From contig NC_135901.1 of the NCBI RefSeq assembly GCF_964194155.1, positions 30,008,001 through 30,072,000 on the forward strand: a stretch of 64,000 bases of DNA, in the 5' to 3' direction. The notes beneath the pieces are model-generated. The model was given only the letters and a program-made list of their open reading frames with translations, made no database searches and was not told the DNA's origin. The DNA comes from Cetorhinus maximus. Taxonomy: Eukaryota. Each line of letters opens with the position of its first letter. Positions within the stretch are counted from its first letter, which is position 1. Below, piece after piece: positions 1,875 through 59,370 of this stretch. The translations under genes were made by a program, and so were the position numbers.

Positions 1875-2420
1875 ACAGATGTTGCCCAGAGGAGGAAGTT
1901 TTAGTCTGAAGCTCATTGTCCAACTTCCGCATTCTGACGTCCAGAATGGAACCCTGCCTGAATCAGCCAATAGGAATCAGTCTGCTCCGCCGTGACGTCC
2001 TTGGGTTCCAGTCTGCAGGCCAGGCTCGCGGACACGGGAAAAGCTGGAGGTCAATGAGCGCGCGGCCTCCAGGCGACCACCAGGGCAGGAGCTGCACATG
2101 CGCAGCTGTACGGCAGACTCGGCACATGTGCAGTCCCGGGCCGCCCGCCCGCGCGGCGGATAGAGCGGTTTCCCCAGCGCGGGCGATTGTGGGAGCTGCG
2201 GTCGTCATTACTCATCCGGAGCCCAGTCTCCAAACGCCTGGGACTGGGATGGAAAGTGGGGGTTGGGGGGGGGGGGGGGCACAGTGACCCCACCCTGACA
2301 CAAAGTACATGTGGGTAGTCACTGGATTTGATTGTGACGTCCCCTTAGCAAAACAGTTTGTCAACTTCAGGTGTAAAGATTCAGACACCTGGGTGACAGA
2401 TCGGGGAGGGCAACAGGTGA
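1875..2420. promoter_or_regulatory. CpG-rich bidirectional promoter P1 (X arm facing left, Z arm facing right)
   Basis: Two TGACGTC CRE-like sites, AGCCAAT, NRF1-like GCACATGCGC, GC box CCGCCCGCCC, reverse ZNF143-like site GATTGTGGGAG; both arms recur at other gene pairs. Confidence 0.7.
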
Positions 2421-2884
2421 ATGTGAAACTGAGGCCTAGTGTCAGCACCTTCAGGGGAGGGGAATTAGGGGGTTTACTTCTGCTCATGTTAATGACCCCT
2501 GTAACTGAGCTGGAGTTTAATATTCAGGATGTAAGTGGAATGAATCAGCTTTGGATTGAACACCCTATGTCATGCCCTTGATGTGGGATAAGTTGGGACT
2601 GCTGATTTGCTGGGTCAGCAGTGTCTCTTTAAGAACTGCTGTGTGTGATCTCTCCTCATTCATTCAGTGACTCTCAGCGGACATTATTTTACAATGAAAC
2701 AGGTCCCTTTCAGCATCACACCCAAACAACTCCTACGTGTGAAATCAACTAATCCGTGTCTGAAATGTTCTACTTATTGAAATTGCATAGAATTAACATC
2801 AAAGGACCAGACCATTGGGGCCACCTGGTCTGTGATGTTTTTTGTTCTCCACACATGCCTCCTCCCACTCCTCTTCACCTCATT

Positions 2885-3215
2885 GTCAGTCGAGGCTCAG
2901 TGGGTAACACTCCTGCCTCTGATTCCCAAGCATTTGGGCTCATGGCCCCAATCAGGAATTGAGCACAAAACTCACATTTGACCCTCCAGCGCTGTACTAA
3001 GAGAGTGATACCCTGTCGGAGGTGCTGTCTTTCAGGTGAGAGGCTGCACCGAGGTCCCATTTGCCTGCTCGGGTGGATGTAAAATATCCCACTTCATTAT
3101 TCTGGAAGAAGAGCAGGGCAGTTCTCTCCGGTGTCCGGGTCAACATTTATCCCTCAATCAACATCACAAAAACTTATCATCTGGTCATTATCACTTTGCT
3201 GTTTGAGGGACCTTG
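2885..3215 (+). mobile_element. tRNA-headed Deu-domain type SINE (SacSINE1-like)
   Basis: A-box-like head GGCTCAGTGGGTAA and central GGTGGATGTAAAA..TCCCA..GAAGAAGAGCAGGG..GGTGTCC; other copies at ~14600-14910, ~45390-45490 and ~47350-47575 (minus). Confidence 0.65.
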
Positions 3216-3314
3216 TAAATTGTCCAGAGGAGCTAGAGAGTCTGCAAAAAGATATAGGCAGGTTAAGTGAATGGGAGAACATTTGCAGATGGAGCATAAT
3301 GTGGGGAAATATTG

Positions 3315-3520
3315 GGAAGGGAGTTCCAGGGTTTTGACCCGGTGACAGTGAAGGAATGGTGATATGGTTCTGAGTCCGGATGGTGAGTGGCTTGGAGGGG
3401 AACTTGCAGGTGGTGGTGCATCTGCTGCCCTTGTCCTTCCAGGTCGGAGCGTTCACGGGTTTGGAAGGTGCCGAATCTGCAAAGTCTGTCCACAATCTAC
3501 AAGGCACCACGTGATTCAGG
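3315..3520 (-). mobile_element. 3' fragment of the LINE family also at 34240-35390
   Basis: Shares the CACCACCTGCAAGTTCCCCTCCAAGCCACTCACCATCC motif; further fragments at ~11060-11300, 26760-27030, 42535-42630 and 48580-48900. Confidence 0.6.
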
Positions 3521-3539
3521 AGAAGCTCTGGGATCCCCG

Positions 3540-4174
3540 GTTAGCATTAGGTTTATTTACAGGTTAGTGTATATTCCGGGTTAGGGTTAGTGTTGGGTTC
3601 AGTGTTAGGAATAGTGTTATGGTTAGGTTAGGCATTATGGTTAGGTTTAGAGTTAGGTTTAGGGTTATGGTAAGGTTTAGGGTTAGGTTTAGGGTTATGG
3701 CTAGGTTTAGGGTTAAGGTTAGGGTTAGGGTTGTGTTTAGGGTTATGGTTAAGGGTAGGGTTATGGTTAGCTTTATGGTTAGGTTTAGGGCTATGGTTAG
3801 GTTTAGGGTTACGGTTAGGTTTAGGTTTAGGGTTATGGTTAGGTTCATGGTTAGGTTTAGGGTTATGGTTTGGTTTAGGGTTAGGGCTAGTGTTAGGGTT
3901 AGGTTTATAACGAGGGTTCGGGTTAGAGTTAAGTTTAGGGTTTGGGTTATTGTTAGGAGTTATGTTTATGGCTAGGCTTAGGTTTAGGTTTTGTTAAGGT
4001 TTATGGTTAGGGTTAGGTTTAGGGTTATGGTTAGGTTTAAGGTTATGGTTATGTTTAGGGTTAGGGTTAGGCTTAGGGTTAGGTTTACGGTTGTGTTTAG
4101 GCTTAGGGGTATTGTTAAATTTAGGGGTATGGTTAGGTTTAGGGTTAAGGTTAGGGGTTAGGGGTTAGGGTTAG
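3540..4174 (+). repeat. Interstitial telomere-like array of TTAGGG with variant hexamers (TTATGG, TTAGGT)
   Basis: About 630 bp of in-phase hexamers, often as an 18-mer TTATGG-TTAGGT-TTAGGG. Confidence 0.95.
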
Positions 4175-4352
4175 GCCCCTTTATTTCTGGGTTGGTGCAT
4201 ACGCAAGACCCTTTATCTCTGGGTCATTGTATACACAAGCTCCTTTATCTCCAGGCCAGTTTATACACAACCCCCTTTATCTCTGGCCCAGTTTATACAC
4301 AAACCCCTTTACCTCCGGGTCAGTGTATACACAAGCCCCTTTTATTTCCGGG
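4175..4352 (+). repeat. ~32-bp minisatellite, about 5.5 copies
   Basis: Unit approximately CCCCTTTATCTCTGGGTCAGTGTATACACAAG, directly abutting the telomere-like array. Confidence 0.85.
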
Positions 4353-5302
4353 TTTTCAATCCCCCTTGAGCTCAGCATCTCCTTGCTCAGCCCATCCTGC
4401 TGCATTCTGGGTAGGGGTTATCTTGGCCGTTTCCTGCTCTTTACCCACTATCCTCTGATTTCCAGCTATTCCAATATCCATGTATTGTTTGCGCATTAAC
4501 AGTCCGAACGTAACCTTGAGAGTGGTTCAAAAGTTCAAAACTCCTCGCCTAAGTTAAAAATGCTCAAAATGGGGAGCCTCCTCCCAATTTACTTCATCAA
4601 GCCCCACCGACATATTCTTCTGTTTCTTTCTCCTTCATGTGTTTATCCAGTTTCCCCTTACAGACATCTATCCTATACACCTCACCCACCCCCCCCACCC
4701 CCACCCCCCAACCCCGTGGGAGCGAGATCCACATTCTCACCACTCTCTGGGTGAAGAAGTTTATTTTCTTAACTTTCTTCTTGTCCCTTTTAATTGTTGC
4801 CCAGTTTCTCAGCTCGATCTGCTGATCCTGGAATAGGGAAAAGGGCTGAGAAAGGATGAGGCAACTGAGACTTCACATCACTTCCCTGAACAGCAGGGCT
4901 CAGTCCATCCCATACTCTAGCCTCTGAGTCTGAAGGTCGTGGGTTCAAGTCCCCACTCCAGAGATTCGAGTCCCCCATAATCCAGGGCTCACACTTCTTC
5001 AGACTTTAGCTGGCAGGTTCCTAAATTCTGGAATTCTCTCCCTTAACCCCTTAACTTCTATCTTTTCCTTTTAGACTCTGCTGAAAAGTCATCTTTTCTT
5101 ATCCCAGTGACACCAAGACTTGACAAACTGTGTGTCCAAAACAAAGCTGATTTATTTATCATTTACCCAGAATATTAAACTCCAGCTCAGTTACAGGGAT
5201 TATTCACATCAGCAGAAACAGACCCCAACTGTCAGAATGAACATGGTTCAGTCCTGGATGTGATTAGCAGCAGCAAAAACAGCAGAATCCAACCCCTGCA
5301 GT

Positions 5303-6360
5303 CAAACATGAATTCGCTGGTGTGTCAGGAGATGGGACGAGTGAGTGAACTTTCAAACAGCCTTTCCCTGATGTGAACTTACTGGTGTATCAACAGGCTG
5401 GAGGATTGGCTGAATTCCTTCCCACACATGGAATATTTAAATGTCTCTCCCCAGTGTGAATTCACTGGTTTGCCAGCAGCTTAGCTGACTGAGTGAATTC
5501 CTTCCGAGTTGGATCAGGTGACTGGTCTCTCTCCGGTGTGAGCTCATTGATATGTTATCAAGCTTAATGAGTGAGTGAATCCCTTCCAACATTCAGAGCA
5601 GGTGACTGGCCTCTCGTGGTGTCCCAGCAGGTGAGAGGAATCTCTGAACCTCTTCACACACTGGGAGCGAGCAAAGGGCCTCTCCACAGTGTGAACTAGT
5701 TAGTGTCTAAGCAGGGTGGATGAGCAACTGAATCCCTTCCCACACAGAGCAGGTGAATGGCTTCTCCCCACTGTGGCTGCATGGTTGAATTTCCAGCTTA
5801 AATAAAATTACCTGGGAAAACTCAGCAGGTCTGACAACATCTGCGGAGAGGAACACAGTTAACGTTTCGAGTCCGTATGACTCTTCAACAGACCTAAGGA
5901 AAAATAGAAGAGGGGTGACATATAAACAGGCTTAAGGACAAGTAGAGCTGGATAGAGGGCCAGTGATAGGTGGAGATAGCCAAAAGATGTCATAGATAAA
6001 AGGACAAAGAGATCTAAGGAATGTGCTAATACGTGACATTAAGGGTAGAAAGCAGGACGAGCAAGGTACACATAGCCCTAGTGGGGGTTTCCAGCTTGGT
6101 TGCTTTCTCAAAGCTCTGCCACTGCCATTTTTATATAGTTCATCTTCTGTCGGGTTACAGTTGTCCATCACTAAGCAGGATGATCAATTGAAGCCTCACA
6201 CTGATAGCTGAAAACTTTTCAGTAGATAGACAAATAATTTTTCGTTCTGCATTCAAAGGCTGATAATAGTCAGATCCTGATAAGTTGAGTAATGCTATCA
6301 GATCTTGACGTGATGTTTGGTTTGCATTTCCTGTCTAAAAATCCTCCCTATTGATGCCCT
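5303..6360 (-). pseudogene. Heavily decayed C2H2 ZNF pseudogene (Z2, partner of a Z arm), interrupted by a Penelope-like fragment
   Basis: Reverse strand has eroded HTGERP/CSxCGKGF repeats with many stops and indels, followed by the family 3' UTR motif at ~5225-5300 and AATAAA at ~5152. Confidence 0.85.
5800..6087 (-). mobile_element. Penelope-like element 3' fragment
   Basis: Matches the end of the 15435-16795 element; 10-bp direct repeat tttccagctt at 5790-5799 and 6088-6097. Confidence 0.75.
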
Positions 6361-6699
6361 GTAAACGGAGATTAGAAAAGATTACAGAAGTAAAGGGTGG
6401 AAAACTAGTACTGTCGATTCCAGTTCTCACAGGACATCCTTCTCCCTCTCAAACTATAAATCTCTGCACTTCCCCCCAACACCACAACAACACTCACTCC
6501 TTATTGATTGTAACAATGTGCAAGGGTACAGGGAAAAGTCCGAGCAATGGCACTAGGTCGTGATACTCATTTGGAGAGCTGGTGCAGACACGATGGGCCG
6601 AATGGCCTCCTTCTGTCTGTTAAAATTCACCTCCCCCACACCCCATACAGTCCCTCCTCCCTATTGATTGTAACCCTAATTCACCTCTTGCCCTGCTCA

Positions 6700-7173
6700 G
6701 TATGTCACCCAGGTGTCTAAACCTTTACACCTGAAGTTAACAAACTATTTTGCGAAGGGAGCATCACGATCAAATCCAGTAACTACCCACATGTACTTTG
6801 TCTCAGGGTAGAGTCACTGCACTCCCCACCCCCACCTTCCATCCCAGTCCCAGGTGTTTGGAGATTGGGATCCGGATCAGTAATGGCAGTCGCAGCTCCC
6901 ACAATCCACCGCGCTGGGGACACCGCTCTATCCGCCGCGCGGGCGGGCGGCCCAGGACTGCGCATGTCCAAGGAAGTGGGGAAGCTGCGCATGTGCGGGG
7001 CAGAGCCCCACCCCCCTTCCCAATCCCGATTCTCTTCAGGCTGAGGAATCGACCAATGGAAAGAGTTGGAGGACCGGAAGGACTCTGGTCCTCCAGCTAT
7101 TCAGAGCGCGGGCTTTGTGTGAATGAAGATTGAGCTTCACACAGACTAAAACTTCCTCCTGTGTCCAACATCT
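6700..7173. promoter_or_regulatory. Bidirectional promoter P2 (Z arm left, Y arm right) with first non-coding exon
   Basis: ZNF143/Staf consensus match CTCCCACAATCCACCGCG (6896-6913), GGGCGGGCGG, two TGCGCATGT NRF1-like sites, CCAAT, CCGGAAG ETS site; donor GTAAGT at 7174 and acceptor TTGCAG at 7246. Confidence 0.75.
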
Positions 7174-7489
7174 GTAAGTAAAACACTTTCTTTTCTCCCC
7201 CTTTCCATTTCTTTTCTCATTCTGGGGGGAAATTGTTGTTTTGCAGGAACTGAAGGGAAAGGAAGTGAATCCAGGGAGGGTGCAGACTCTGGAAAGGTTG
7301 GCCCAGGTCTCTCTCTCTCTCTTAAAGACATTGATATCCTTTGCTCCCTCAGCTTGACACATTTATTTGTCTGGCTAAAAGGATGGTCTCTTTCCTAATG
7401 TTCACAATGAAAGGGGTGGTTTCCCCAGGAGATGGCTGACATTCAAGGGGACAGTAAATTAATATAGAACAGAGAAATGTCCAAGATAG

Positions 7490-7615: not shown

Positions 7616-8621
7616 ATATGGCTAATGTTATATGGTACATATTAGATATATTATTTATGGTTCAGTAATAAGATACATTTTATTATTATTTCTAATCTTG
7701 TAATATAGTACTGTAACTAGGTTATATATTTTCAGTCAGAGTCATTATGGCACAGAAGGAGTCCATTCGGCAACTGAATCCATGCCGACTTTCTGCAGAG
7801 CGATCCAGTCAGTCCCATTGCCCCTCTATATCCCTGATCCCATGCAAGTTTATTTCCTTCACGTGTCCATCCAGTTTGATTTTGAAATCATTGATTGCCT
7901 CTGCTTCCACCATCCTCGTAGGCCGCGAGTTCAAGGTCATGACCACCTGCTTCTTCACCTGTGCCTTAACCAAGTGATGCTGTCCCAATGATGATGCAGG
8001 AAGATTTTCAGATCTCTGTGTCCAGGGGAATAAGCAATCAGCATTGATCTGTCGATCAGCATGAATCAGCGCCTTTCGGAGAATTGGGAGGGTGTATGTG
8101 AGGTACAGCAGAGTGAGAATGGAGGGAGAGTGTGTGGGTTGGAGATTTACAGCTTTTGGGGAACGATAGAGGAAAGAATGTTGCACAGGAACTAGAATTG
8201 CTTTCCTGAATTTCTATCCTGTACTGAGAGTGATGACTTTTGTAATCTCCTTTCACAGTAGATAAAAAGAGGAGTATTTTCAGAGAGAAATTTCACACTA
8301 AACATCACATCAAGGTCTGACAGAGTCACTCAATTCATGGGAACCAAACATCATCAGCCTTTGAATCTCGAAGGAGAAATGTTTGTCTGCTCTGCCTGCT
8401 TTGAACGGTTTTAAACACCAGTGTGACTGGAAAAGCACCGAGAGACACACACACCTGAGTGAGAGTGTTCCAGTGCACTGACTGTGGAAAGAGCTTTAAC
8501 CAGTTACACAGCCTGAAAAAACATCACCATTCACAGCGGGAAGAGACTGCACACATGTTGTGTGTGGGAACAATGCTACATCTGATTGTCAAACCTGGAA
8601 AGACACAAGGACAGCCGCACC

Positions 8622-9200
8622 ATGGAGAAACCGTGGACATGTGGGGACAGTGGGAAGGGATTCAAGAACCCATTCAAGTTGGAAACTCATCGACGCAGTC
8701 ACATTGGGGACAGGCCGGTCATCTGCTCTGAGTGTGGGAAAGGATTCAGTGATTCATCTGCCCTGCGGAAGCACTGGTAAGTTCACTCTGGGGAGCGGCC
8801 GTTCATCTGCTCTGCGTGTGGGAAGGGATTCACTCAGTTATCCATCCTGCTGACATACCAGCGAGTTCACACTGGGGAGAGGCCGTTCACCTGCTCTGAG
8901 TGTGCAATGGGATTCAAGCAGTTTTCCCACCTGCTGCAACACCATGTCACTCACACGAATGAGAGACTGTTTAAATGCTCACACTGTGGAAGTGGCTTCA
9001 AAAGCTCTCGGGAACTGGAGAGCCACCATCACATTCACACTGAGGAGAGACCTTTCAGCTGCTGAGTGTGGGAAGGGATTAAGTGATTCATCCGGCCTGC
9101 TGAGACACCAGCGAGTTCACACTGGGGAGACACCGTTCACCTGCTCTGTGTGTGGGAAGGGATTCACTCATTTATCCAACCTGCTGAGACTCCAGGTGAA
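8622..9200 (+). pseudogene. C2H2 ZNF pseudogene (Z3), about 7 fingers
   Basis: cgcaccATGG start, [14 protein letters not shown]; TAA at 8778-8780 in finger 2 and later frameshifts; family 3' UTR at 9205-9330. Confidence 0.85.
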
Positions 9201-10329
9201 AGTGATTCCAGGGATTGGATTCTGCTGTTTTTGCTGCTGTTACTTACAACAAGGACTGAACCATGTTCATTTGGACAGTTGGCGAAGTGGGAGGGTCAGA
9301 GGGTTTCTTTCTGCTGGACTGGCCGGTCTCACGACTTTGTTTCTAGTGGGCTGATGCTCTTTGAGCCTGAGAGTGCACATTTCCAATTAAATGATCCCCA
9401 AAAGCTGATGAAGTAAATTTATTTTATCCTGGACAGTAAATAGTGTTTTTCCTACCACTACAGGTAGATCTAAAATAAATACATTTGTCTCTGTTCCATT
9501 GAGTCTACAGCACAGGGCCAGGCCAGGCGGCTCAATTGGTCTCTGTCAGTATTTATGCTCCACATGAACCTCCACCCACCCCTCTTCATCTCCTCCCATC
9601 AGCATATCCTTCTATTCCTTTCTCCCTATGTATCTAGCTTCCCCTTAAATGTAATCATGCTATTAGGATAGTAGGATGAATTAGTGTTACAATCAATAGT
9701 TGGGACGGAATGTCTGGGGGGCACAGAGGTACATAGTGGCATTGCCATTGGACTAGTATTGCAGAGACCCCGGGTAATAATCTGGGGACCCGGGTTAGAA
9801 TCACACCACAGCAGATGTTGAAATTTGAATTCAACAAAAACCAGGATTTAAAGGTCTGATGACGACCATAAAACCATTGCTGATTGTTGCAAAAACCCAT
9901 TTGATTTGTTTCACTAATGCCCTCGAGATAAGGAAACAATTTGGGATGAGCCACCCACATCCCATTAACGATTGTAGGATGTTCTATGACATAATCATAA
10001 TCTTGAACAAATCTTTTGTCAATTTCTGTTTCAAAATATTCCTGTGAAAAACTTGGAACATGTTGTTACTTTAAAGGTGCCATATAAATATAGGTTGTTC
10101 TGTTACTGAAGGCTGTCACTTGAACTCCCCACTACTCCCAACTCCAAGACCCCGAAGATGAACAGTCTGATCAACCATCTCATTCCCACAGCACAGCCCA
10201 GACATTCTCAGTGAATCTCCTGTTCTCAGACTCCATTGTGACTCTGTCCCTGCTGTCTCACTGTGCTGAGCTCGTGTGTGAACAAAGCATTTATGTCTTC
10301 AGACTTTTACTCTAAGAGTTTTAACCCAT

Positions 10330-11470: not shown

Positions 11471-11479
11471 TGGAGAGGA

Positions 11480-11583
11480 GCGCCGGCTTCGTGTGAATGA
11501 AGATTGAGCTTCACACAGACCAAAACTTCCACAAAAGCTGATAAAGTACATATATTTTATCCTGGATAGTAAATAGTGATTTT
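11480..11583 (+). pseudogene. Collapsed ZNF locus: Y-arm exon 1 joined directly to distal 3' UTR
   Basis: GTGTGAATGAAGATTGAGCTTCACACAGAC (as at 7117) followed by CAAAAGCTGAT..TTTTATCCTGGATAGTAAATAGTG (as at 9400-9445). Confidence 0.7.
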
Positions 11584-17900: not shown

Positions 17901-19400
17901 TCTTCTTGGTAATGGCCACCATACTCACCTCTGCCCCCCCGACTCTCTTGAACTTCGGGGATGTTACTCGTGTCTTCCACAATGAAGACTGATGCAAAGT
18001 ACCTATTCAGTTCCTCCGCCATTTCTTTGTTCCCCACTACTACTTCTCTAGCGTCATTTTCCAGCAGTCCAATGTCCACTTTTGCCTCTCTCTTACTCTT
18101 TATATATCTAAAAAAAACTCTTGCAATCTTCTTTTATATTATTGGCTAGTTTACCCTCATATTTAATCCTCTCCCTCCTTATTTCTTTTTTAGTTGTCCT
18201 CTGTTGGTCCTTGTAGGCTTCCCAATCCCCTGATTTCCCACTGATCTTCACCGCATTGTATGCTTTCTCTTTAGCTTTTATGCTGTCCCTGACTTCCCTT
18301 GTCAGCCATGGTTGCCGCGTCCTCCCTTTAGTATGCTTCTTCTTCCTAGGGATGAATTTTTGCTTTGTCTTCCAAATTACTCCCAGAAACTCCTGCCATT
18401 GCTGTTCCACTGTCTTTCCTGCTAGGCTCATCTCCCAGTCAATTCTGGCCAGCTCCTCCATCATGCCTCTGTAGTTGCCTTTATTCAACTGTAATACCGT
18501 TACATCTGATTCCAGCTTTTTCCTCTCAAATTGCAGGGTAAATTCTATCATAATATGGTCACTTCCTCCTAAGGGTTCCTTCACCTTAAGCTCCCTTATC
18601 AAATCTGCCTCATTACACATCACTAAATCTAGAATTGTCCGTTCCCTAGTGGGTTCCACCACAAGCTGCTCCAAAAAGCCATCTCGAAGACTTTCCACAA
18701 ATTCCTTTTCTTGGGATTCACTACCAACCTGATTTTCCCAGTCTACCTGCATATTGAAATCCCCCATAATCACTGTAACCATGCCTTTCTTACACGCCTT
18801 TTCTATCTCCTGGTGTATCTTGTGCCCCACATCCTGACTACTGTTCAGAGGCCTGTACATAACTCCCATTATGGTTTTTTCACCTTTGCAATTCCTCAAC
18901 TCTACCCACATAGATTCTACATCTGACCCTACGTCGTTTCTTGCTATCGATTTAATTTCATTTCTTACTAACAATGCAACCCCATCCCCTCTGCCAACCT
19001 GCCTATCTTTTCAATAGGATGTATATCCTTGGATATTTAGCTCCCAGTCCTGATCCCTTTGCAGCCATGTCTTCGCGATGTCCACCACATCATGCCTGCC
19101 AATTTCAATCTGCACCACAAGCTCATTTACCTTATTTTGTATACTGTGTGCATTCAGATACAACACCTTCAGTCCTGTATTTCCCGTCCCCTTTCTCATT
19201 GTCGTCCCTTTACCTGATGTGCTTGAAGTTAGATTCCTAGCCCTTTCCAAACACTCTGTTCCATTTTGTGCTCTGGAGAATTTAATAGCCTCTCCTGGGC
19301 TCTCTTTTCTTTTCAGTTTTTTCATAATTTTCCATGAAGTTGAATCCACGCCCCCACAGGCTAACCTGCTGCTTTGTTTCCCATTTGTCATACTTCTTGG
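14922..19400 (-). mobile_element. CR1 LINE with near-complete ORF2 (APE endonuclease and RT), frameshifted and split by a Penelope-like insertion
   Basis: LYLNAHSIQNK, IMGDFNM, GGSDH, DFQKAFDKVPH, GVPQGSVLGPQLF, FADDTK, RNFFSQRVVNLWNSLP; 3' microsatellite tail near 14922. Confidence 0.95.
15435..16795 (-). mobile_element. 5'-truncated Penelope-like retroelement (RT thumb and GIY-YIG endonuclease), degenerate
   Basis: YLDYSSSHP..KDSIPFSRFLHLRRICS, NLVYCIRCS..IGETKRRLGDRFAEH; 13-bp TSD acatccttcctga at 15422-15434 and 16796-16808. Confidence 0.9.
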
Positions 19401-23900: not shown

Positions 23901-24221
23901 TCGTTGAAATGAATTTCATTCATCCAGTCCAATTTCATTTTGAAACTATTGATCATCTCGGAGTGAGTTGCCAAATGTCTCTGTCTGGGACAAGAAGCAG
24001 TGAGCTTGGATCGGTCGATGAATATGAATCGGCACCTTCAGGAGAATTGGGAGGGTGTATATTGAGTATAGCAGAGTGAGAATGGAGGGACAGTGTGTAG
24101 GACGGAGATTTACAGCTTTTTGGGAATGAGAGAGGAAAGCATGTATCGTAGAAACTGGAATTGTCTGTTCTGAATTTCTATCCTGTGCTGACTGTAATGA
24201 CTTTTGTAAACTCCCTTTACA

Positions 24222-25090: not shown

Positions 25091-25507
25091 CTGCTAAAGG
25101 ATTTTACAAACATTGTTGTCAGTACAGGATAGAAATTCAGAACAGACAATTCTAATTTCTATAGAACATTCTTTCCTCTCTCATTCCCCAAAAGCATTAA
25201 ATCTCCATCCCACACACTCTCGCTCCATTCTCACTCTGTTGCACCTAAGACACAACCAACATTACTGCACCAAAAATGTGTGTAAGACACAGTATTTTAT
25301 TATATGATTAGAGATACATGCTGGCGTGGGGAAGAACTTTATTTCAACAGCCAGTGGTGATGACCTGGAAGCCACTGCCTATGAAGCCGGCCAGTCCAGC
25401 AGAAAGAAACCCTCTGACCCTCCAACTTCACCAAGTGTCAGAATGAACATGGTTCAGCCCTGGATGTGATTAACAGCAGCAAAAACAGCAGAATCCAACC
25501 CCTGGAA

Positions 25508-40215: not shown

Positions 40216-41223
40216 TCACTTGTGAACTCGCTGGTGTGTCTGCAGGTTGGATAACTGAATGAATCCCCTCCCACACACAGGGCAAGTTAATGGCCTCTCC
40301 CCAGTGTGAACTTGCTGGTGTGTCAGCAGGTTGGATAACTGAGTGAATCCCTTCCCACACACAGGGCAAGTGAATGGCCTCTCCCCAGTGTGAACTCGCT
40401 TGTGTGTCTGCAGGTTGGATGAATCACTGAATTCCTTCCCACGCACAGAGCAGGCGAATGGCCTCTCCCCATTGTGAATCCGCTTGTGCTTCTGCAGAGT
40501 GTATGAATGACTGAATTCCTTTCCACACACAGAGCAGGTGAATGGCCTCTCCCCAGTGTGACCTCGCTGGTGGATCTGCAGTTTGGAGGATGTTCCTAAT
40601 GTCTTCCCACAGTGAGAGCAGCTGAACGATCTCTCCTTAGTGTGAATGCGCTGGTGGACCATCAGGTCATGAGACCTTTTGAAGGCACTCCCACAGTCAG
40701 AGCATTTAAAAGGTCTCTCACTGGTGTGCGTGACATGGTGTTGCAGCAGGCTGGATGACTGAGTGAATCCCTTCCCACACTCAGAGCAGGTGAACGGCCT
40801 CTCTCCGTTATGAACTCGCTGGTGTGTGAGCAGATGGGCTGACCAAGTGAATCCCTGCCCACAATCGGAGCAGGTGAACAGCTTCTTCCTGGAGTGAACA
40901 CGCAGGTGCCTCTGCAGCGCGTATGCATCACTGAGACCCTTCCCACACACTGAGCAACTGAATGGTCTCTCCCTGTGAATACGCTGGTGTGTCTTCAGGG
41001 TGGATGAATCACTGAATCTCTTCCCACACTCAGAGCAGGTGAAAGGTCTCTCTCCAGTGTGAACTCGCTGGTGTGACAGCAGATGGGATGACTGACTGAA
41101 TCCCTTCCCACAACCAGAGCAGGTGAATGGCCCCTCCCCGGTGTGACTTCGTCGATAGGTTTCCAGTGCAGATGGGAACCGGAATCCCTTCCCACAGTCC
41201 CCACATTTCCACGCTTTATCCAT
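40216..41223 (-). CDS. Tandem C2H2 zinc-finger protein (Z9), 335 aa, 12 finger units (2 degenerate), no effector domain
   Basis: Uninterrupted ORF from cacaccATGG; CxxC-x12-HxxxH repeats with TGERP linkers; ends HQRVHK*; promoter P4 upstream and family 3' UTR downstream. Confidence 0.85.
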   Translation of the reverse strand: MDKAWKCGDCGKGFRFPSALETYRRSHTGEGPFTCSGCGKGFSQSSHLLSHQRVHTGERPFTCSECGKRFSDSSTLKTHQRIHRERPFSCSVCGKGLSDAYALQRHLRVHSRKKLFTCSDCGQGFTWSAHLLTHQRVHNGERPFTCSECGKGFTQSSSLLQHHVTHTSERPFKCSDCGSAFKRSHDLMVHQRIHTKERSFSCSHCGKTLGTSSKLQIHQRGHTGERPFTCSVCGKEFSHSYTLQKHKRIHNGERPFACSVRGKEFSDSSNLQTHKRVHTGERPFTCPVCGKGFTQLSNLLTHQQVHTGERPLTCPVCGRGFIQLSNLQTHQRVHK

Positions 41224-41664
41224 GGTGTGCGTGACCTTGTGATTCTCCAGGCCTGATGGTCAGTTGAAGCCTTGTCCTCATACAGAACATGTGTATAATG
41301 TCCCTCCTCACAATGAATGATGTGATGTTTTCTCAGGCTGTGTAACTGGTCAAAGCTCTTTCCGCAGTCAGTGCACTGGAACACTCTCACTCGGGTGTGT
41401 GGGTCTTGGGCCTTTTCCAGGCCCCCCGACGTTTAGAACCTTCTGAAATAGACAGCACACAGAAACATTTATCCTTCTAGATTCAAAGGCTGATGATATT
41501 CAGCTCCAAGGATGTCAATGTCTTTAGGAGTGAGAGAGAGAGACCTGGTCCAACCTTTCCAGAATCTGCTCCCTCCCTGGATTCACTTCCTTTCCCTTCG
41601 GTTCCTGCAAGTCAACATTTTGCCCCCAGAATGAGAAAAGAAATGGAAAGGAGGAAACATTGAT

Positions 41665-42117
41665 TTCCTCACAGATGTTGCCCAGAGGAAGAAGTTTCAG
41701 TCTGAAGCTCATTGTCCAACTTCCGCATTGTGACGTCCAGAATGGAACCCTGCCTGAATCAGCCAAAAGGAATCACTCCGCTCCGCGGTGACGTCCTCGG
41801 GTTCCAGTCTGCAGGCCAGGCGCGCGGACACGGGAGCCCCGCCCCCATCCATTGTTCCCCCTCCACCACCTCCTCGAGCCAAGGTTTCCAAGCAACCGGC
41901 TGACGGCTCCGGTCAGAGCGAGAAGCCGCTCGGAGATCTCGGGAGAGGGGAAGCTGCGCATGTGCAGAGGAGAGCCCTTCCCTTCATGCTGAGGGGATGA
42001 TCAATGGGAAGAGTTGGAGGACCGGAAGGACTCTGGTCCTCCAGCCAATCAGGGCGGTCGATTTGTGTGCATGAAGCTTGAATTTCACACAAACTTCCCC
42101 CTGTGTCCAACATCTGT
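41665..42117. promoter_or_regulatory. Bidirectional promoter P4 (X arm left, Y arm right)
   Basis: Inverted equivalent of P3; two TGACGTC, CCCCGCCCC, TGCGCATGTGC, CCGGAAG, CCAAT; donor GTGAGT at ~42116. Confidence 0.75.
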
Positions 42118-43569
42118 GAGTAAAACACTTTCTTTTCTCCCCCTTTCCAGTTCTTTCCTCATTCTGGGGGCAAATTGTTGACTTGCAGGAACTGAAGGGA
42201 AAGGAAGTGAATCCAGGGAGGGTGCAGACTCTGGAAAGGTTGGCCCAGGTCTCTCTCTCTCTCTTAAAGACATTGACATCCTTTGCTCCCTCAGCTTGAC
42301 ACATTTATTTGTCTGGCTAACAGGATGGTCTCTTTCCTAATGTTCACAATAAAAGGGGTGGTTTCCCCAGGAGATCGTTGACATTTAAGGGCACAGTAAA
42401 TAAATATAGAACAGGGATATGTCCAGTGTTGTTATATGGTACATATTAGATATATTATTGATGACTCAGTAATAGAGCCCATGTATTATTATATCTACCT
42501 TTTTAATACAGTACTGTGTATATTTCCTAATCATTTCCAGCAGCAGGTCACCACCACCTCTCAAGGGCATTTAGGGATGGGCAATAAGTGCTGGCTTCAC
42601 CAGTGACACCCACTTTCTATGAATGAATTAAAAAAATTATTGCAGCACAGAATGAGTCTATTTGGTAGCTCGAGTCCATGCTGACTCTCTGCAGAACAAT
42701 CCAGCCAGTCCCTTTCTCCCTCTGTATCCCCATTCCACTGTAAGTTTATTTCCTTCAAGTGACCATTGAATTCAATTTTCAAATGCTTGATCATCTCTGC
42801 TTCCACCACCCTCATAAACAGCAAGTTCCAGGTCATGACCACTCACTGCCTAGAAAAGTCTTGGTCACATCCACCCTGTATCTCTAATTGGGTTATACAA
42901 TACTGTACATTAAATGCATTAACTATATATATCCGACCGAGCCACATGAAGATTTTTAGCTCCCTGTGTTGAGGACAGGACCTGGTGAGCATGGATCTGT
43001 TGGTCAGCATGAATCGGCACCTTCAGGAGATTTGCGAGGGTGTACATTAGACATAGCAGAGTGAGAAAGGAGGGAGAGTGTGTGGGACAGAGATTTACAG
43101 CTTTTCGGGAACAAGAGGAAAGAATGTTCCATAGAAACTAGAATCGTCTGTTCTGAATTTCTATCCTGTACTGACTGTGATGACTTTTATAAACTCCTTT
43201 TATAGGATATTTGAAGGGGGGGGATTTTGAGACAGAAATCTCAAACCAAACAACACATCAAAATCTGCGAGTTACTTGATTCACTGGGACCGGATGTCAT
43301 TGGCCTTTGAATCTAGGATTTGAAATGTTTGCTTGTTCTCTCTGGTTGAAAAGATTTTAAACAACAGTGTGACTGGAAAAGTACCAACACACACACACAC
43401 CCGAGTGCGAGTGTTTCCAGTGCACTGACTGTGTAAGAGCTTTAACCAGTTGCACAGGCTGAAAAAATATCACTATTCACAGCGGAGAGAGAGACTGTAC
43501 ACGTGTTCTGTGCGTGGTCAAGGCTTCAACTGATTGTCCCACTTGGAGAGACACAAGGACACCTGCACC

Positions 43570-44568
43570 ATGGAGAAACCGTGGAAATGTGGGGACTGTG
43601 GGAAGGGATTCAGATCCTCCTCTGTGCTGGAAACCCATCGACGCAGTCACACCGTGGAGAGGCCATTCACTTGCTCCAAGTGTGGGAAGGGATTCACTCA
43701 GTCATCCCATCTGGAGACACACCAGCAAGTTCACACCGGGGAGAGACCGTTCACCTGCTCTGAGTGTGGGAAGGGATTCAGATCCCCATCTAAGCTGGAG
43801 ATCCATCGATGCAGTCATACTGGGGAGAAGCCATTCACCTGCACTGAGTGCGGGAAGCGATTCAGTCATTCATCCAACATATTGACATACCAGCGAATTC
43901 ACACTGGGGAGAGGCCGTTCACCTGCTCTGACTGTGGGAAGGCATTCAGTTATTCATCCGGCCTGCAGAAGCACCAGCGAGTTCACACCGGGGAGAGGCC
44001 GTTCATCTGCTCTGAGTGTGGGAAGGGATTCACTCGGTCAGCCCACCTGCTGGCACACCAGCGAGTTCACACCGGGGAGAGACCACTCACCTGCTCTCGG
44101 TGTGGGAAGCGATTCAGGAATTCATCCAACTTATTGACACACCAGCGGGTACACACCGGGGTGAGACCGTTTACCTGCTCTGACTGTGGGAAGGGATTCA
44201 GTGATGGATCTGCCCTGCGGACGCACCAGCGAGTTCACACCAAGGAGAGGCCATTCACCTGCTCCGTGTGTGGGCAGCGATTCACTCAGTCATCCAGCCT
44301 GCTGATACACCATGTCACTCACACCAATGAGAGACCTTTTAAATGCTCTGACTGTGGGAGTGGCTTCAAAAGTGCTGCTGTTCTGAGGATCCACCAGCGC
44401 ATTCACACTGAGGAGAGACCGTTCAGCTGCTCCCAATGTGCAAAGAGTTTTAGAACGTTGTCTGATCTACAGAGACATCAGCGAGTTCGCACCGGGGAGA
44501 AGCCATTCGCCTGCACCAAGTGTGGGAAGAGTTACGCTGATTCATCCAACCTGTGGAATCACCGGTGA
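43570..44568 (+). CDS. Tandem C2H2 zinc-finger protein (Z10), about 332 aa; premature TGA in finger 12, finger remnants continue to ~44720
   Basis: tgcaccATGG [14 protein letters not shown]; 11 finger units before NHR*VHT, a probable CGA>TGA change. Confidence 0.75.
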   Translation: MEKPWKCGDCGKGFRSSSVLETHRRSHTVERPFTCSKCGKGFTQSSHLETHQQVHTGERPFTCSECGKGFRSPSKLEIHRCSHTGEKPFTCTECGKRFSHSSNILTYQRIHTGERPFTCSDCGKAFSYSSGLQKHQRVHTGERPFICSECGKGFTRSAHLLAHQRVHTGERPLTCSRCGKRFRNSSNLLTHQRVHTGVRPFTCSDCGKGFSDGSALRTHQRVHTKERPFTCSVCGQRFTQSSSLLIHHVTHTNERPFKCSDCGSGFKSAAVLRIHQRIHTEERPFSCSQCAKSFRTLSDLQRHQRVRTGEKPFACTKCGKSYADSSNLWNHR

Positions 44569-47959: not shown

Positions 47960-48520
47960 AGCTACTGTCAGAATGAATATGGTTCGTGATTCGATGACCA
48001 AGTGAATCCTTTCCCTCACTCGGAGCAAGTGAACGGACACTCCCCTGGGTGACTGCGCTGTTCTGTCAGCAGGTGGGCTAACTGAATGAATCCCTTTCCA
48101 CACAGCGAGCACATGAACGGCCCCTCCTCAGTGTGAAGTCACTGATGGGTCAATTAGCTGATAGAATCTGTAAACCACTTTCCACACAGCACGCAGGTGA
48201 ATAGCTTCTCCCCAGTGTGAATGCATTGATGAGCAACCTGCTCAGGTGGGGATCTGAATCTCTTCGCACAGTCCTTACATTTCTATGGCTTTTCTATAAC
48301 ATGTGTCTACTTGAGTCCATCCAGATTGGATGATCAGTTTAAACCTTAACAATACACAGATGTTTGAAATCTTTTCCCACAGACAGAAGAAAGGAATATT
48401 TCTCTTTCTAGATTCAAGACCAATGATATTCAGAATCTGATGAATCGAGTGACTGTCAGGTTTTGATGTGTTATCTAATTTGAGTTTCCTGTCTCTAAAT
48501 CCTTCTTCTCTAAAACTCTG
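47960..48520 (-). pseudogene. Heavily decayed ZNF pseudogene (Z11, partner of a Z arm)
   Basis: Eroded IEKPxKCKDCAKRFRSPP..HTGEKLFTC repeats with stops and indels. Confidence 0.8.
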
Positions 48521-49069
48521 CGAAGGGAGTTGACAAAAATAATCACTCTGACTGCAGGGCTCACCAAGGCTCACAATTCACCAAGGCTTCTTCACAAGGA
48601 TCTTCCAACTCACAACCACTACCATGTAGAAGGACAAGGGCAGTAAATAGATGGGTACACCACCACCTGGAAGTTCCCCTCCCAGTCACTCATCATCCTG
48701 ACTTGGAAATATTTTGCCATTCCTTCACTGTTTCTGGATCAAACTCCCTTCCTAACAGCACTGTGGTGTACCTACAACACATGGACTGCGGCGGCTCAAG
48801 AAGACAACTCACCACCACCTTCTCAATGGCAAATAGGGATGGGCAATAAATGCTGGCCCAGCCAACGATGCCCACATCCCGTTAATGAATAAAAAAAAGA
48901 TAGAAATTCAGAACTGACAATTCTGGTTCTCAAGGAAAATTCTTCTCCCTTTCAAACTATAAATTTCTGTCCCCCACACACTCCCTCCTCCCTATTGATT
49001 GTAACACTAATTCATCCGACTATCCTCCTCCTGCTTTTCCCCCAGTTCTCCTCCACTGAAGGTGCTGAC

Positions 49070-49571
49070 TCTGGGGATCAGTTTCACATTCACCTATTGC
49101 CCTCCCCGATATGTCACCCAGGCATCTAAATCTTTACACCTGAAGTTAACAAACTGTTTTTCTAAGGGGACGTCACAATCAAATCCAGTGACTACCCACA
49201 TGTACTTTCTGTCAGGGCAAGGGTCACTGCGCCACCCACCTCCACTTTCCATCCCAGTTCCAGGGGTTTGGAGTCCGGGCTCCGGATGAGTAATGGCGGC
49301 CGCAGCTCCCACAATCCCCAGCGTTGGGGAAACCGCTCTATCTGCCGCGCGGGCGGGCGGCCCGAGACTGCGCATGTCCAAGGGAGAGAGGAAGTTGCGC
49401 ACTATGGGAGAGAGCCCACCCCCGCCCTTCCCGTCATTCTGAGCGATTGACGAATAGGAAGAGTTGGAGGACCGGAAGGACTCTGGTCCTCCAGCTAATC
49501 AGAGCCCGGGCTTTGTGTGAATGAAAATTGAGCTTCGCACAGACTAAAATTTCGTCCTGTGTCCAACATCT
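49070..49571. promoter_or_regulatory. Bidirectional promoter P5 (Z arm left, Y arm right)
   Basis: YY1-like AATGGCGGC, ZNF143-like CTCCCACAATCCCCAGCG, GGGCGGGCGG, TGCGCATGT, CCGGAAG hairpin; donor GTGAGT at 49572. Confidence 0.75.
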
Positions 49572-50074
49572 GTGAGTAAAACACTTTCTTTTCTCCCCCT
49601 TTCCATCTCTTTTCTCATTCTGGGGGAAATTGTTGACTTGCAGGAACTGAAGGGAAAGGAAGTGAATCCAGGGAGGGTGCCGATTCTGGAAAGGTTGGCC
49701 CAGGTCTCTCTCTGTCTCTCTTTCTCAAAGACATTGACATCCTTTGCTCCCTCAGCTTGACACATTTATTTGTCTGGCTAAAGGGATGGTCTCTTTCCTA
49801 ATGTTCACAATTAAAGGGGTGGTTTCCCCAGGAGATGGCTGATATTTAAGGGGACAATAAATTAATATAGGACAGAGATATGCCCAGTATTGTTATGTGG
49901 TGCATATTAGATATATTATTTATGGTTCTGTGATAAAATACATTTCTTATTATTTCTCGTCTGGTAACATAGTATTGTAACTATGTTTTATGTTTCCAGT
50001 TCTGGGATCATTATGGCGCAGATGGAGTCTATTTGGAAACTTGAGTCCATGCCGACTCTCTGTTGAGTAATCCA

Positions 50075-51470: not shown

Positions 51471-52252
51471 AGGACTATGGAGGCCGCAGGTTAAATATAT
51501 TCAAGACAGAGATTGATAGGTTTTAGATATTGAAGATATTCAGGGTTTTGGGGGATAGTTCAGGAAAATGGCACTGAGGCAGATCAGCCATAATCTCATT
51601 CAATGGTGGAGCAGGGTCAATGGGCTGAATTGCCTACTCCTGCTCATATTTCTTATGATCTCTGTGTCCTGGACAGGGAGTGGTGAGCGTGGATCTGTCG
51701 ATCAGCATGAACCTTCAGGAGAATTGGGAGGGTGCATATTAGGTACAGCAGAGTGCGAATGGAGAGAGAGAGTGTGTGATGGAGATTCACAGCTTTAGTG
51801 GAATGAGAGAGGAAAGAATGTTCCATAGAAACTAGAATTGTCTGTTCTGAATTTCTATCCTGTGCTGACAGTGATGTCTGTTGTGAATTCCTTTTACAGG
51901 ATACTAGAAGGGGAGGATTTGCTGACAGAAGGCTGAAATCAAAGGTTAAGATCTCACAGAGTCACTCGATTTATCGGAACCTGAATATGATCAGCTTTTG
52001 TATCAAGATGGAGAAATGTGTTCTGTGTTCTGTCTGCTTCAAAATGTTCTAAACATCAGGGGGACTTGAAAAGGCCCAAGACCCCCACACCCGAGTGAGA
52101 GCATTCCAGTGCACTGAGTGTGGAAAGACCTTTAACCAGTTACACAGCCTGAAAAAAAAATCACATCATTCACAGTGAGAAGAGACATTTTACATGTTCC
52201 ATGTGAGGACGAGGCTTCAACTGACCTGGAGAGAGACACAGACACGCACACC

Positions 52253-53092
52253 ATGGAGAAACCGTGGAAATGTGGGGACTGTGGGAAGGGATTCAAAACC
52301 CCATCGAAGCTGGAGACTCATCGACGCAGTCACACCGGAGAGAGACCGTTCACCTGCTTTGAGTGTGGGAAGGGATTCGCTCAGTTACACCACCTGCAGT
52401 CACACCACCAGGTTCACACTGGGGAGAGGCCATTCACCTGCTCCGTGTGTGGGAAGGGATTCGCTCGGTTATACAACCTGCAGACACACCAGCGAGTTCA
52501 CACTGGGGAGAAGCCGTTCACCTGCTCTCACTGTGGGAAGGGTTTCACTCAGTCATCCAATCTGCAGACACACCAGCGAGTTCACACCAAGGAGAGACTG
52601 TTCACCTGCTCTGTGTGTGGGAAGGGATTTACTCAGTTACCCAACCTACTTATTCACCAACAAGTTCACACTGGGGACAGACCATTTACTTGCTCTGATT
52701 GTGGGAGGGGATTCACTCGGTTATCCAACCTGCTGACACATCAGCGGGTTCACACTGAGAGGCTGTTCCCCTGCTCTGAGTGTGGGAAAGGATTCACTGA
52801 GTTCTACAGACTGCAGGCACACCAGCGAGTTCACACTGGGGAGAGGCCATTCACCTGCTCTCAATGTGGAAAGGGATTCGCTCGGTTACACCACCTGCAG
52901 TCACACCAGCAGGTTCACACTGGGGAGAGGCCATTCACCTGCTCCGTGTGTGGGAAGGGATTCGCTCGTTTATACAACCTGCAGACACACCAGCGAGTTC
53001 ACACCGGGGAGAAGCCGTTCACCTGCTCTCAGTGTGGGAAGGGTTTCACTCAGTCGTCCCACCTGCAGACACACCAGCGAGTTCACAAGTGA
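52253..53092 (+). CDS. Tandem C2H2 zinc-finger protein (Z12), 279 aa, 10 intact fingers, no effector domain
   Basis: cacaccATGG [27 protein letters not shown] ... HQRVHK*; acceptor ttttacag at ~51899; family 3' UTR at 53093-53250. Confidence 0.9.
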
Positions 53093-54225: not shown

Positions 54226-54234
54226 ATACACACA

Positions 54235-56905: not shown

Positions 56906-57311
56906 TTAGTCTGTTCGTCTCCAAAGTCCCAGGAAGGTGTTGAAAATGTCAGACTATGTTCAAGGCTGGGCTTGAATTTTCTCTTTAATTTCAAGATAGA
57001 ATGACATTGGGAGTCTAAAAGGTAACTAATCAGCATGCCTACCTGGATACTAGGCTCATGTGATTCACTTTGCCCTTAGGAAGGGCTTTATTAGAGGAAG
57101 GATCCATGGGAAGCCATTGTAGGATCAGATTGGAAAGTTCTTCTAAAAGGCATCCCTGAATTTCACAGACAGATCAGTCTGCCAGGGTCCGAGAGAGCTG
57201 ATAGAGGCGGCAAGTCCCTGTTTCACCACGCGGGAATGTGGATGGGACATTGTGCTCACGTTGAAAAAAACAATTTCATGAGGATTTAAAACAAGACTGG
57301 AAGATTTGCCT

Positions 57312-57502
57312 AAACAAAAACAGAAACAGAAATACCTGGAAAAACTCAGCAGAACTGTTCTGTTGAAGGGACAAGAGGACTCGAAACGTCAACTGTACTC
57401 TTCTCCGCCGATGCTGCCAGACCTGCTGAGTTTTTCCAGGTATTTCTGTTTCTGTTTTTGTTTTGGATTTCCAGCATCCACAGTTTTTTGTTTTTATCTC
57501 TG
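57312..57502 (+). mobile_element. 191-bp Penelope-like mini-insertion with a perfect 41-bp inverted repeat
   Basis: 57312-57352 is the reverse complement of 57423-57463; 14-bp TSD tggaagatttgcct at 57298-57311 and 57503-57516. Confidence 0.85.
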
Positions 57503-57959
57503 TGGAAGATTTGCCTTGCTTGAGTTAGAGGGATGACCCAGGAGAACCTTCACTGTGAAAGACAGTTCTGAGGTTAAAGGTTGCCAGACAAGGAAAGGAA
57601 AAGAATGGAAGTAAACCCTTTGGAGCGAAGAATCACTTTGGACAGGTTCAAGGATAATTGGGTATCTATTTCAGGAACACACAGTATAACTGTGCAGTGG
57701 GATTTTTGATTATGTTCCAAGTAAAATGGCAAATTTCTGTTTGATAATTTAAGGTATATGTTGCCAACAAAAATGGTGTTTAGTCAAAGTTGCTTCTAGA
57801 TTGTTTGTTGCAGTAAAAGTTACAAAACTTGAAGTCTTTTCATGTGACCCTTTAACTTGTTCATTGGGAATTTGAATTTCTTTTTAGAAGTTGCCAGTCT
57901 TTACAGAGATCCTAACATTTAGTTTAGAGCCAAATGTTTCATCTTCCCATTTGATCCAC

Positions 57960-58515
57960 CAGCACCTTTCTGTCTCTCGACTGCTCATGTCAATGACAGC
58001 CAGGCGACGGAACTGAGGGCTGAATTTAGCTAAGAGTAACGGAGCCTGTGCCCCAGTTGGGGAACTCCCTTGGGCATCGCACTAATAAAGAGACAGGAAG
58101 GTGATGGAGGTCTGACTGGGAAATGGGCCTCCAACCAACCAGGGCACGGGAGGGGGTGACCGGGGCTGATGGTGACACGACCCCCAGGGTTCAGTGCCTC
58201 TGTGTCCAAAGCGGGTAGCCACGGGAACAGGGTACAGAGGAGCTGAAGAGAAACCATTTGGGTCAAGAACATTGTGTGCATCCTTTTACTCTAGTTGTCT
58301 TTGATTCTCAAGTAATTTTCTGTTTGTCTTTTAACCATGTTCTGTTTCATTACTAAACTTTTATCAATAAAATATTTGATTTACTGATTATATTTATTCA
58401 CTTCAGGCAAAGTGGATGAGAGGGGTTGGCAGGCGCTTTAACAGAAAGTGAGTCCCTCTGAGGTAATTGACAAAGGAGCCAGAGGGGGAAATGAGATTTT
58501 ATTTTTCTGTTGACA
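57960..58515 (+). repeat. Locally duplicated segment of unknown origin (third copy)
   Basis: Matches 37910-38460 reversed and 11765-12050. Confidence 0.8.
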
Positions 58516-58529
58516 CACAATGTTAGAAA

Positions 58530-59155
58530 ATGGGGTTCAGGGAGTCCATCGTGATTTACTAATTTATCAAAGTTCTTTGAGGAAGTAATGAGAAATATGG
58601 ATAAAGGGGAACCTGCAGAAGTTGTTTACTTAGATTTCCAGAAGGCCTTTCATAAGGTGCCACAGAAAAGGTCACTACCCAAAATAAGAGCTCATGGTAG
58701 AGGGGGTCACAAATTAGCACGGATAGAGGATTGGTTAGTTAACAGGACACAGAGAGTAGGCATAAATAGGTCATTTTCGGGTTGGTAAGATGTAACAAGT
58801 GGAGTGCCACAGGAGATCAATGCTGGGTCCTCAGCCATTAATATTTCTATAAATGACTTGGTTGATGGGACTGAATGTATGGTAGCTAAATTTGCTAGTG
58901 ACACAGATATGTAGGAAAATAATTTGTAAAGAATGAGTGGGCAAAAATTCAGCCAATGGAGTATAATGTAGGAAAATGTGAACTTGTCCACGTTGGGAGG
59001 AAGAATTTTAAAAAGCATATTATTTAAATGGAGAGAGATTGCAGAACTGTGAGGTACAGAGGGATCTGGGTGACCTGGTACATGAACCACAAAACGTTAC
59101 TATTCAGGTACAAGTGATTAGGAAAGCAAATGGAATGTTGATATTTATTGCATTC
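58530..59155 (+). mobile_element. CR1 RT fragment truncating promoter P6
   Basis: VVYLDFQKAFHKVPQKR, GVPQ. Confidence 0.85.
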
Positions 59156-59167
59156 ATTCCGCCTCCG

Positions 59168-59370
59168 AGCGGCGGATAGAGCAGTTTCCCCAGCGCGGGG
59201 GATTGTGGGAGCTGCAGCCGCCATTACCCATCCGGAGCCCAGTCTCCAAACTCCTGGGACTGGGATGGAAAGTGGCGGTGGGGGGGGGGGTGCGCAGTAA
59301 CCCTGCCCTGACACCAAGTACATGTAGGTAGTCACTTGATTCGATTGTGACACCCCCTTAGCAAAACAGG
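59168..59370 (+). promoter_or_regulatory. Isolated Z promoter arm (P6)
   Basis: Close match to 2153-2355; reverse ZNF143 consensus CGCGGGGGATTGTGGGAG and YY1-like GCCGCCATT. Confidence 0.65.

Follow-up and report, generated by a model that had tools for sequence, protein, structure and literature searches.

Introduction

Vertebrate bidirectional CpG-island promoters, in the part of PMC3082894 that is available, separate genes arranged head to head at less than 1 kb, carry GABPA, NRF1, NFY, YY1 and Staf/ZNF143-type motifs, and serve protein/non-coding pairs as well. The same head-to-head layout of less than 1 kb and the same motif types are found in a 64,000-nucleotide stretch of the 3.99-Gb Cetorhinus maximus genome (contig NC_135901.1, here C24; G000:C24:30,008,001-30,072,000), referred to below as the window, which lies in a cluster of C2H2 zinc-finger (ZNF) genes. 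The promoters treated in that part of PMC3082894 are mostly unrelated and single-copy, whereas those of the shark cluster belong to one family of hundreds of copies, known at present from sequence alone. A preliminary description of the window had distinguished six CpG-rich modules (M1 to M6, from left to right) composed of three arms: X, with two TGACGTC sites and CCAAT; Y, with an NRF1-like site, CCAAT and an ETS-like site in a hairpin; and Z, with a GC box, a Staf/ZNF143-like site and a YY1-like site. One module class, Z|Y, would correspond to a protein/non-coding pair.

The cluster resembles mammalian tandem C2H2-ZNF clusters (PMC2443715) in its tandem and multi-gene block duplications and its many pseudogenes, as far as these are treated in the accessible text, in which the terms 'promoter' and 'head-to-head' do not occur. 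Unlike the KRAB-ZNF clusters of that text, the shark cluster yielded no KRAB, SCAN or BTB domain in the three open reading frames (ORFs) scanned. The FiNZ-ZNF genes of cyprinids (PMC10547256) likewise represent a ZNF expansion specific to one lineage of fish, and their promoters also have more than one architecture; they differ, in the portion available, by an N-terminal domain and by a division of their promoters into those with TATA and those without, and the terms 'shark' and 'chondrichth' are absent from that portion. Segmentally duplicated regulatory families (PMC13333887) are comparable in that duplication yields similar elements, whose target gene stays the same or changes, but those described in the accessible text are human, functionally tested and largely a matter of enhancer rewiring, with no deletion-derived complementary arms described there. 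Mammalian duplicate promoters (PMC10100218) are also inherited by paralogues through segmental duplication. According to the available part of that paper, their retention favours promoters without a CpG island and their similarity fades fast; in the shark cluster, by contrast, CpG-rich promoters have been kept in large numbers at 85-95% identity, a departure from mammals, where CpG-island promoters seldom persist after recent duplication. A literature search, with most subscription papers outside its reach, found no description of these promoters.

Set beside these systems, the module family appears to work like a bidirectional CpG-island promoter that has been amplified in the manner of tandem ZNF clusters and duplicated regulatory families. 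We consider it probable (roughly 0.7) that the modules are a segmentally duplicated, CpG-island-like promoter family serving a finger-only C2H2 cluster, shaped by rare rearrangements, block duplication and occasional swaps.

Two abundant promoter classes in the ZNF cluster

Exact exon-1 donor patterns matched the genome 324 times for the Y type and 114 times for the X type, giving at least 438 copies, and control patterns matched 0 times. Among the donor matches listed, 97 of 100 Y-type and 100 of 100 X-type were located on C24 (197 of 200, with 238 further matches unlisted). Of 160 module clusters assembled from tiles and top-hit loci, 49 were Z|Y, 39 were X-W|Y, 4 were X|Z and 68 were partial or interrupted; 664 kb of unselected tiles held 26, 14 and 2 modules of the three complete classes, respectively. 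W denotes a 105-bp block that is present in X|Y modules and was absent from the preliminary description. The combinations Z|Z, X|X and short Y|Y were not encountered among the 160 clusters. Four head-to-head pairs of Y-type donors were retrieved as candidates for a homotypic Y|Y module, and all proved to be long-arm or X modules. At the level of sequence, the family is shown to comprise two abundant classes (Z|Y and X-W|Y) and several rare ones (X|Z, W|U and long arms), with fixed joins, class-linked sub-types and retained CpGs.

Near-identical copies of one multi-gene ZNF block (L133-L142; C24: 0.39, 10.99, 12.95 and 15.74 Mb) were found megabases apart and may be either recent long-range duplications or assembly duplicates.

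Changes of promoter class among related genes

A gene tree was built from 96 of 112 ZNF exon starts, the 16 without a usable label being left out. Sister genes had the same promoter class in 19 of the 23 starred (well-supported) pairs and different classes in 4, and the earlier suggestion that genes change promoter class was upheld to this extent. The promoter-class labels required 27 changes on the tree, where the minimum was 4 and shuffled labels required 47; the starred branches imply no fewer than 6 changes for X, 10 for Y(Z) and 7 for Y(W).

A history of whole-unit duplication without subsequent exchange, in which the mixed tree results from a fast star-like radiation, promoter-juxtaposing deletions and label error, would account for the 19 concordant pairs, for the identical class of all 17 arm pairs that share at least 4 rare leader alleles, and for the frequency of truncated and promoter-less units. 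It would also agree with the leaders of X and Y in one module being barely more alike than other leaders (mean rank 0.61, n=20), a comparison in which conversion between the inverted leaders of a module was not detected. We nevertheless regard this history as unlikely. Two discordant pairs aligned at 90-92% identity across leader, intron and exon (1.5-1.9 kb) while their heads differed (Z|Y2 versus X-W|Y), and the switch therefore lies beyond the class-specific segment. The changes required by the starred branches also speak against it, as do the Y-type exon-end patches, of two lengths, carried by 10 of 45 X arms; the four X|Z copies, which have a single origin (below), include both exon-end states.

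Within the leader, about ten diagnostic X/Y differences were confined to the first 60 bp, and the distal part had no X/Y split (identity 93.5% for X-X, 94.8% for Y-Y and 94.0% for X-Y). Exchange within the shared leader of about 450 bp would be the simplest, and most likely, reading of class switching.

Joins at the promoter centre and the X|Z lineage

The preliminary description had proposed instead that three interchangeable arm-plus-gene units recombine repeatedly at the NRF1-like centre and so build the cluster. Several observations are in keeping with this proposal: all three pairings occur, genes under differing promoter classes are found throughout the tree, the point at which Y is met, about 20 bp short of the NRF1-like site, is common to the W and Z heads, and the end of W that borders Y is also found joined to a fourth arm, U. 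The joins, on the other hand, were at the NRF1-like site only for the W versus Z heads, W being joined to it at a single fixed point; X ended about 125 bp away in X|Y and about 55 bp away in X|Z. Furthermore, Y has three proximal sub-types behind the NRF1-like site (Y1, Y2 and Y3), and Y2 or Y3 accompanied Z in 34 of 50 modules but W in 0 of 45. These counts leave out 20 modules in which no centre was recognisable and 5 whose sub-type was classed as 'other', and the copies in them are non-independent, so that Fisher p-values are inflated. The sub-types therefore stay with their partner, and no sign of recurrent exchange at the promoter centre is apparent from them. A G/A site in Y1 (37:0 versus 1:8) was discarded as a marker because of possible CpG decay. 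Nearly all Z arms lack an intact gene to carry, and the homology available at the centre is about 25 bp, compared with about 450 bp in the leader. Free combination was likewise not seen in the pair counts, with two dominant classes, four X|Z copies and no homotypic module. Taken together with the fixed joins, the partner-bound sub-types and the 19 of 23 sister genes that keep their class, these results make arm shuffling at the centre an improbable engine of cluster growth.

The arm U ends in the same exon 1 as Y (L036, C24:30,123,039-30,123,360; L147, L148 and L159) and was also present in outlying clusters.

The X|Z modules, which the preliminary description had listed as one of the three pairwise combinations, were examined as a lineage. 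The X|Z centre pattern had 4 matches genome-wide, and these four copies have a common linker and join that are in neither main class. Their Z arms formed a 100/100 clade (in rows that include 25 bases of the centre), their genes formed a 99/93 clade (3 genes in the tree), and all four adjoin a degenerate telomere-like array and similar neighbours. A block in their centre, V, resembles the Y3-type insert; its junction with X, at a distance of about 55 bp from the NRF1-like site, coincides with a 4-bp microhomology. As judged from these clades and neighbours, X|Z is of single origin, its 4 copies belonging to one duplicon.

The (GGGTTA)n array by which the X|Z duplicon can be recognised, degenerate in sequence, occupies 3578-4175 of the window (+ strand). 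It belongs to a region, 3578-4342, that lies between Z arms facing each other and in which about 99 degenerate GGGTTA units precede a 32-bp tandem repeat. Telomere-like arrays were seen at two other tile positions besides the X|Z copies.

Long arms and a model of promoter evolution

The X core and the Y hairpin were found in tandem on one long arm at nine divergent loci, namely three of the four Y|Y candidates, a module at 30.102 Mb and five of seven further long-arm loci. A search with a long-arm-specific stretch gave 16 near-full-length matches among 40 candidates scored. The long arm carries spacers found in neither short arm and is therefore not a simple fusion of short X and short Y. Alignment of short X to the long arm left two clean gaps, bounded by 4-bp and 7-bp repeats; all 45 X arms had the short-X junction, and of 88 Y arms, drawn from both classes, 80 had the short-Y junction. 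Long arms are also more diverse than short ones, at 84% versus 91% in the X core and 81% versus 87% in the hairpin. This diversity, together with a long leader on contig C11, makes a long-to-short direction likely. The leader in question belongs to L152 and L153 (C11:10.146 and 10.258 Mb), diverged Z-headed modules with at least 4 consecutive NRF1-like sites. A further locus, L158, was rejected as Z|long because its Z piece is oriented in the same direction.

In the model of rare rearrangement, block duplication and occasional swaps, each promoter class would have originated once, through a few rare rearrangements, and duplication of multi-gene blocks would then have copied promoter and gene as a unit; paralogues at 27.21-27.30 Mb and 29.85-29.99 Mb are arranged in blocks. 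The ancestral long arm is predicted to have consisted of an X core, a spacer, the ETS-like hairpin, a second spacer and exon 1. Short X would have arisen from it via two microhomology deletions that removed the hairpin. In short Y (nested Y3, Y2, Y1), headed by an NRF1 array, the hairpin would have been retained and the distal spacer would have disappeared. X-W|Y would accordingly present a block of cAMP response element (CRE) type on one side and an ETS block on the other. Occasional class switches may have come about by ectopic recombination or conversion in the roughly 450 bp of hairpin, exon 1 and intron leader. Finally, X-W|Y would drive two coding ZNF genes divergently, and Z|Y one ZNF gene plus at most a non-coding or pseudogene transcript, Z presumably being retained as the upstream half of the Y promoter.

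A bolder version of this model, which we put forward only tentatively and consider doubtful, is that complementary deletions split an ancestral composite promoter into CRE and ETS arms later placed back to back (cis-regulatory subfunctionalisation within a single bidirectional promoter), with the highly conserved leader as a standing exchange cassette that transfers finger arrays from one promoter type to another and the Z arms as the source of a family of ZNF-derived non-coding RNAs. Hundreds of effector-less ZNF genes could, if this were true, diversify expression and pairing separately from DNA specificity. The model itself would make the family a record of promoter-architecture evolution in a fast-growing ZNF family outside tetrapods, by few rearrangements, block amplification and occasional promoter-gene swaps. 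Long and short variants, occurring naturally and in hundreds of copies, would be a direct means to learn which motif blocks set bidirectional direction and strength.

Several points weigh against the model. The cluster exceeds 4 Mb, of which the tiles read cover about 0.8 Mb. The long-to-short direction has no rooted tree or outgroup behind it, and the arm trees are star-like, that of XW having 0 starred branches. Two of the discordant pairs were examined; they have 0 and 1 rare leader alleles in common, and their swap points are not placeable in the leader. One of the four discordant pairs depends on an inverted gene fragment labelled by proximity. A central crossover could have produced the switches between W and Z|Y1. 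Lastly, the hypothesis that all X arms carrying Y-type exon ends go back to one origin survived the approximately unbiased (AU) test on the unresolved XW tree (p 0.34), and a recurrent origin of these ends was accordingly dropped.

Genes and promoter features associated with the arms

Arrays of at least 4 fingers lay behind 25 of 26 X arms, 15 of 18 Y(W) arms, 24 of 31 Y(Z) arms and 2 of 41 Z arms. Decayed finger remnants were present opposite 16 of the 41 Z arms, and 12 of 18 rightward Z arms were followed by a leftward Z. The donors of X-W|Y modules are about 450 bp apart, which places the predicted starts head to head at less than 1 kb. The modules had been described as driving head-to-head ZNF pairs; a head-to-head arrangement of coding genes applies to X-W|Y only and not to Z|Y or X|Z. 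Within the window, M4 alone has intact ORFs on both sides. All three intact ORFs scanned matched zinc-finger families only in Pfam, and no KRAB, SCAN, BTB or other N-terminal effector domain was present in these three finger ORFs, upstream exons being outside the protein scan. The protein search was dominated by generic ZNFs, the highest identity among the matches listed being 68%, to a stingray protein; taken with SINE tails of apparent shark type, this suggests an elasmobranch.

Measured against other C/G transitions, CpG decay was 0.82 in XW, 1.15 in Z and 0.51 in Y, versus 3.91 in the ZNF exon (tile-only copies), and splice dinucleotides were retained at 97-100%. The lack of CpG decay and the retained splice dinucleotides point, if indirectly, to germline hypomethylation and to the modules being unmethylated, selected promoter and leader sequence. 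Together with the orientation of the copies, which are aimed correctly at ZNF exons, the retained CpGs support the original view that the modules are promoter-like and tied to ZNF genes. The hundreds of copies, in a region rich in long and short interspersed element (LINE- and SINE-like) pieces, might also suggest transposon or long terminal repeat (LTR) fragments lying by chance in the cluster with no promoter role, but this is very improbable given that the listed donor matches were not dispersed apart from ZNF genes but lay almost entirely on C24, facing ZNF exons, with splice dinucleotides kept, CpGs undecayed and no Rfam family match for the modules.

An 18-bp micro-exon lies between the short intron and the second donor at 41587-41605 of the window and in all leaders; the short intron and micro-exon were 97% conserved across copies, above exon 1.

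None of the runs registered as RNA contained window sequence. Four contig sets guessed to be RNA, from three other organisms, covered X, W, Y and Z positions, but they carry no information on strand, start or level. Depth, which is unsuitable for ranking, was in every set lowest in the Z bin. No exon-1-to-ZNF joint was present among the 15 of 1,653 shown. One RNA-guessed contig ends at the X-side donor 2 (41588) of M4, which is at most a hint.

Annotation of the window

The window contains about a dozen C2H2 units, the majority of them broken. The CpG observed/expected ratio was 0.55-0.65 in module bins and about 0.3 in the rest of the window. The six modules are where the preliminary description placed them, and their blocks are mutually homologous at 81-95% identity. 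The arms are not three independent ones, since X and Y share exon 1; their common outer part runs from the exon-1 end through a donor, a short intron, the 18-bp micro-exon and a second donor to the intron start, the splice sites being predicted from the sequence.

Motif content was largely as described. Each X arm has two TGACGTC sites (1935/1993, 27911/27969 and 41731/41789), and CCAAT was lost from the X arm of M4. All four window matches to the ETS-like CCGGAAG fall in Y arms, the M2 copy within a 14-pair stem. The NRF1-like 11-mer (at most 1 mismatch) had 8 window matches, 7 of them inside modules, where shuffles gave an expectation of 0.38, and CTCCCACAATC had 5, 4 of them in Z arms, where 0.06 were expected; the matches of both motifs are paralogous copies, not independent. 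The Y-side NRF1-like site was lost in M5. In the Staf/ZNF143-like site at 6896-6913, positions 3-6 read CCCR and position 12 is C, matching the Staf description in the accessible part of PMC3082894. The Z-arm motif GCCGCCATT was matched exactly in 2 of the 4 Z arms and not in the others. The names NRF1, ETS/GABP, NF-Y and YY1 are labels that we assume for the remaining motifs, the Staf-like site alone having been compared with a published description.

In M1, the shared leader of the X arm (1596-1915, - strand) comprises the exon-1 end, donor 1, an intron of ~85 bp, the 18-bp micro-exon, donor 2 and the intron start. It is 89-93% identical to the other leaders and is directed at a ZNF array left of the window, with 19 finger motifs at C24:30,006,193. 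Next to it are the X core with two CRE-like sites and CCAAT (1916-2039, - strand), a centre restricted to the X|Z lineage and consisting of block V and two NRF1-like sites with their own linker (2040-2132, unstranded), and a Z arm (2131-2420, + strand) with a GC box, a Staf/ZNF143-like site and a donor at 2417. This Z arm faces nothing but a ZNF 3' untranslated region (3'UTR) fragment at 2469-2592. The Z arm of M2 (6679-6960, - strand), whose Staf-like site is on the + strand, lies opposite a decayed ZNF unit with an acceptor region, broken fingers and 3'UTR (4898-6451, - strand). The centre of M2 with two NRF1-like sites, its Y1 arm with the ETS-like hairpin and its leader with donor 1 at 7174 (6961-7483, + strand) are opposite a frameshifted ZNF gene (8000-9370, + strand). 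A lone 53-bp piece at 11478-11530, composed of a Y end and exon-1 start, is 94% identical to M2.

M3 (27474-28156) consists of a Y arm (27474-27764, - strand), W (27766-27866) and an X core with leader (27871-28156, + strand), with frameshifted ZNF genes opposite both Y (25430-26430, - strand) and X (28210-29290, + strand). It aligns with M4 as a single block of 683 bp at 89% identity. M4 (41508-42425) comprises a leader and X core (41508-41835, - strand; donor 2 at 41586), W (41836-41940), an NRF1-like site at 41955 and a Y1 arm with leader to 42425 (+ strand). Opposite its X arm is an intact finger-only ORF with 10 C2H2 motifs (40219-41259, - strand), and opposite its Y arm another with 9 motifs by pattern (43534-44565, + strand). 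M5 (49039-49886) aligns with M2 as a single block of 812 bp at 87% identity and contains a Z arm (49039-49370, - strand), a centre with a degenerate second NRF1-like site and a Y1 arm with leader (+ strand). A decayed ZNF remnant is opposite Z (47990-48550, - strand), and an intact finger-only ORF with 10 motifs is opposite Y (52136-53089, + strand). The M6 Z arm (59165-59542, + strand) has lost its centre and partner beside a LINE-like fragment, is split by a dispersed repeat (59394-59490) and lies opposite a decayed ZNF remnant (59960-60570, + strand).

Rearranged units were also seen. At 22300-22800 two ZNF gene introns abut head to head with the promoter gone, the right-hand unit beginning at the micro-exon, and at 23972-25257 ZNF exon starts of the + and - strands collide at about 24590 in an inverted fusion of two truncated units. 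Fragments of LINE-like endonuclease and reverse transcriptase were located at 18111-19010, 29477-30406 and 62461-63282. A CpG-rich 29-bp tandem repeat (15.7 copies, 91% matches) occupies 63548-64000 and extends past the end of the window.

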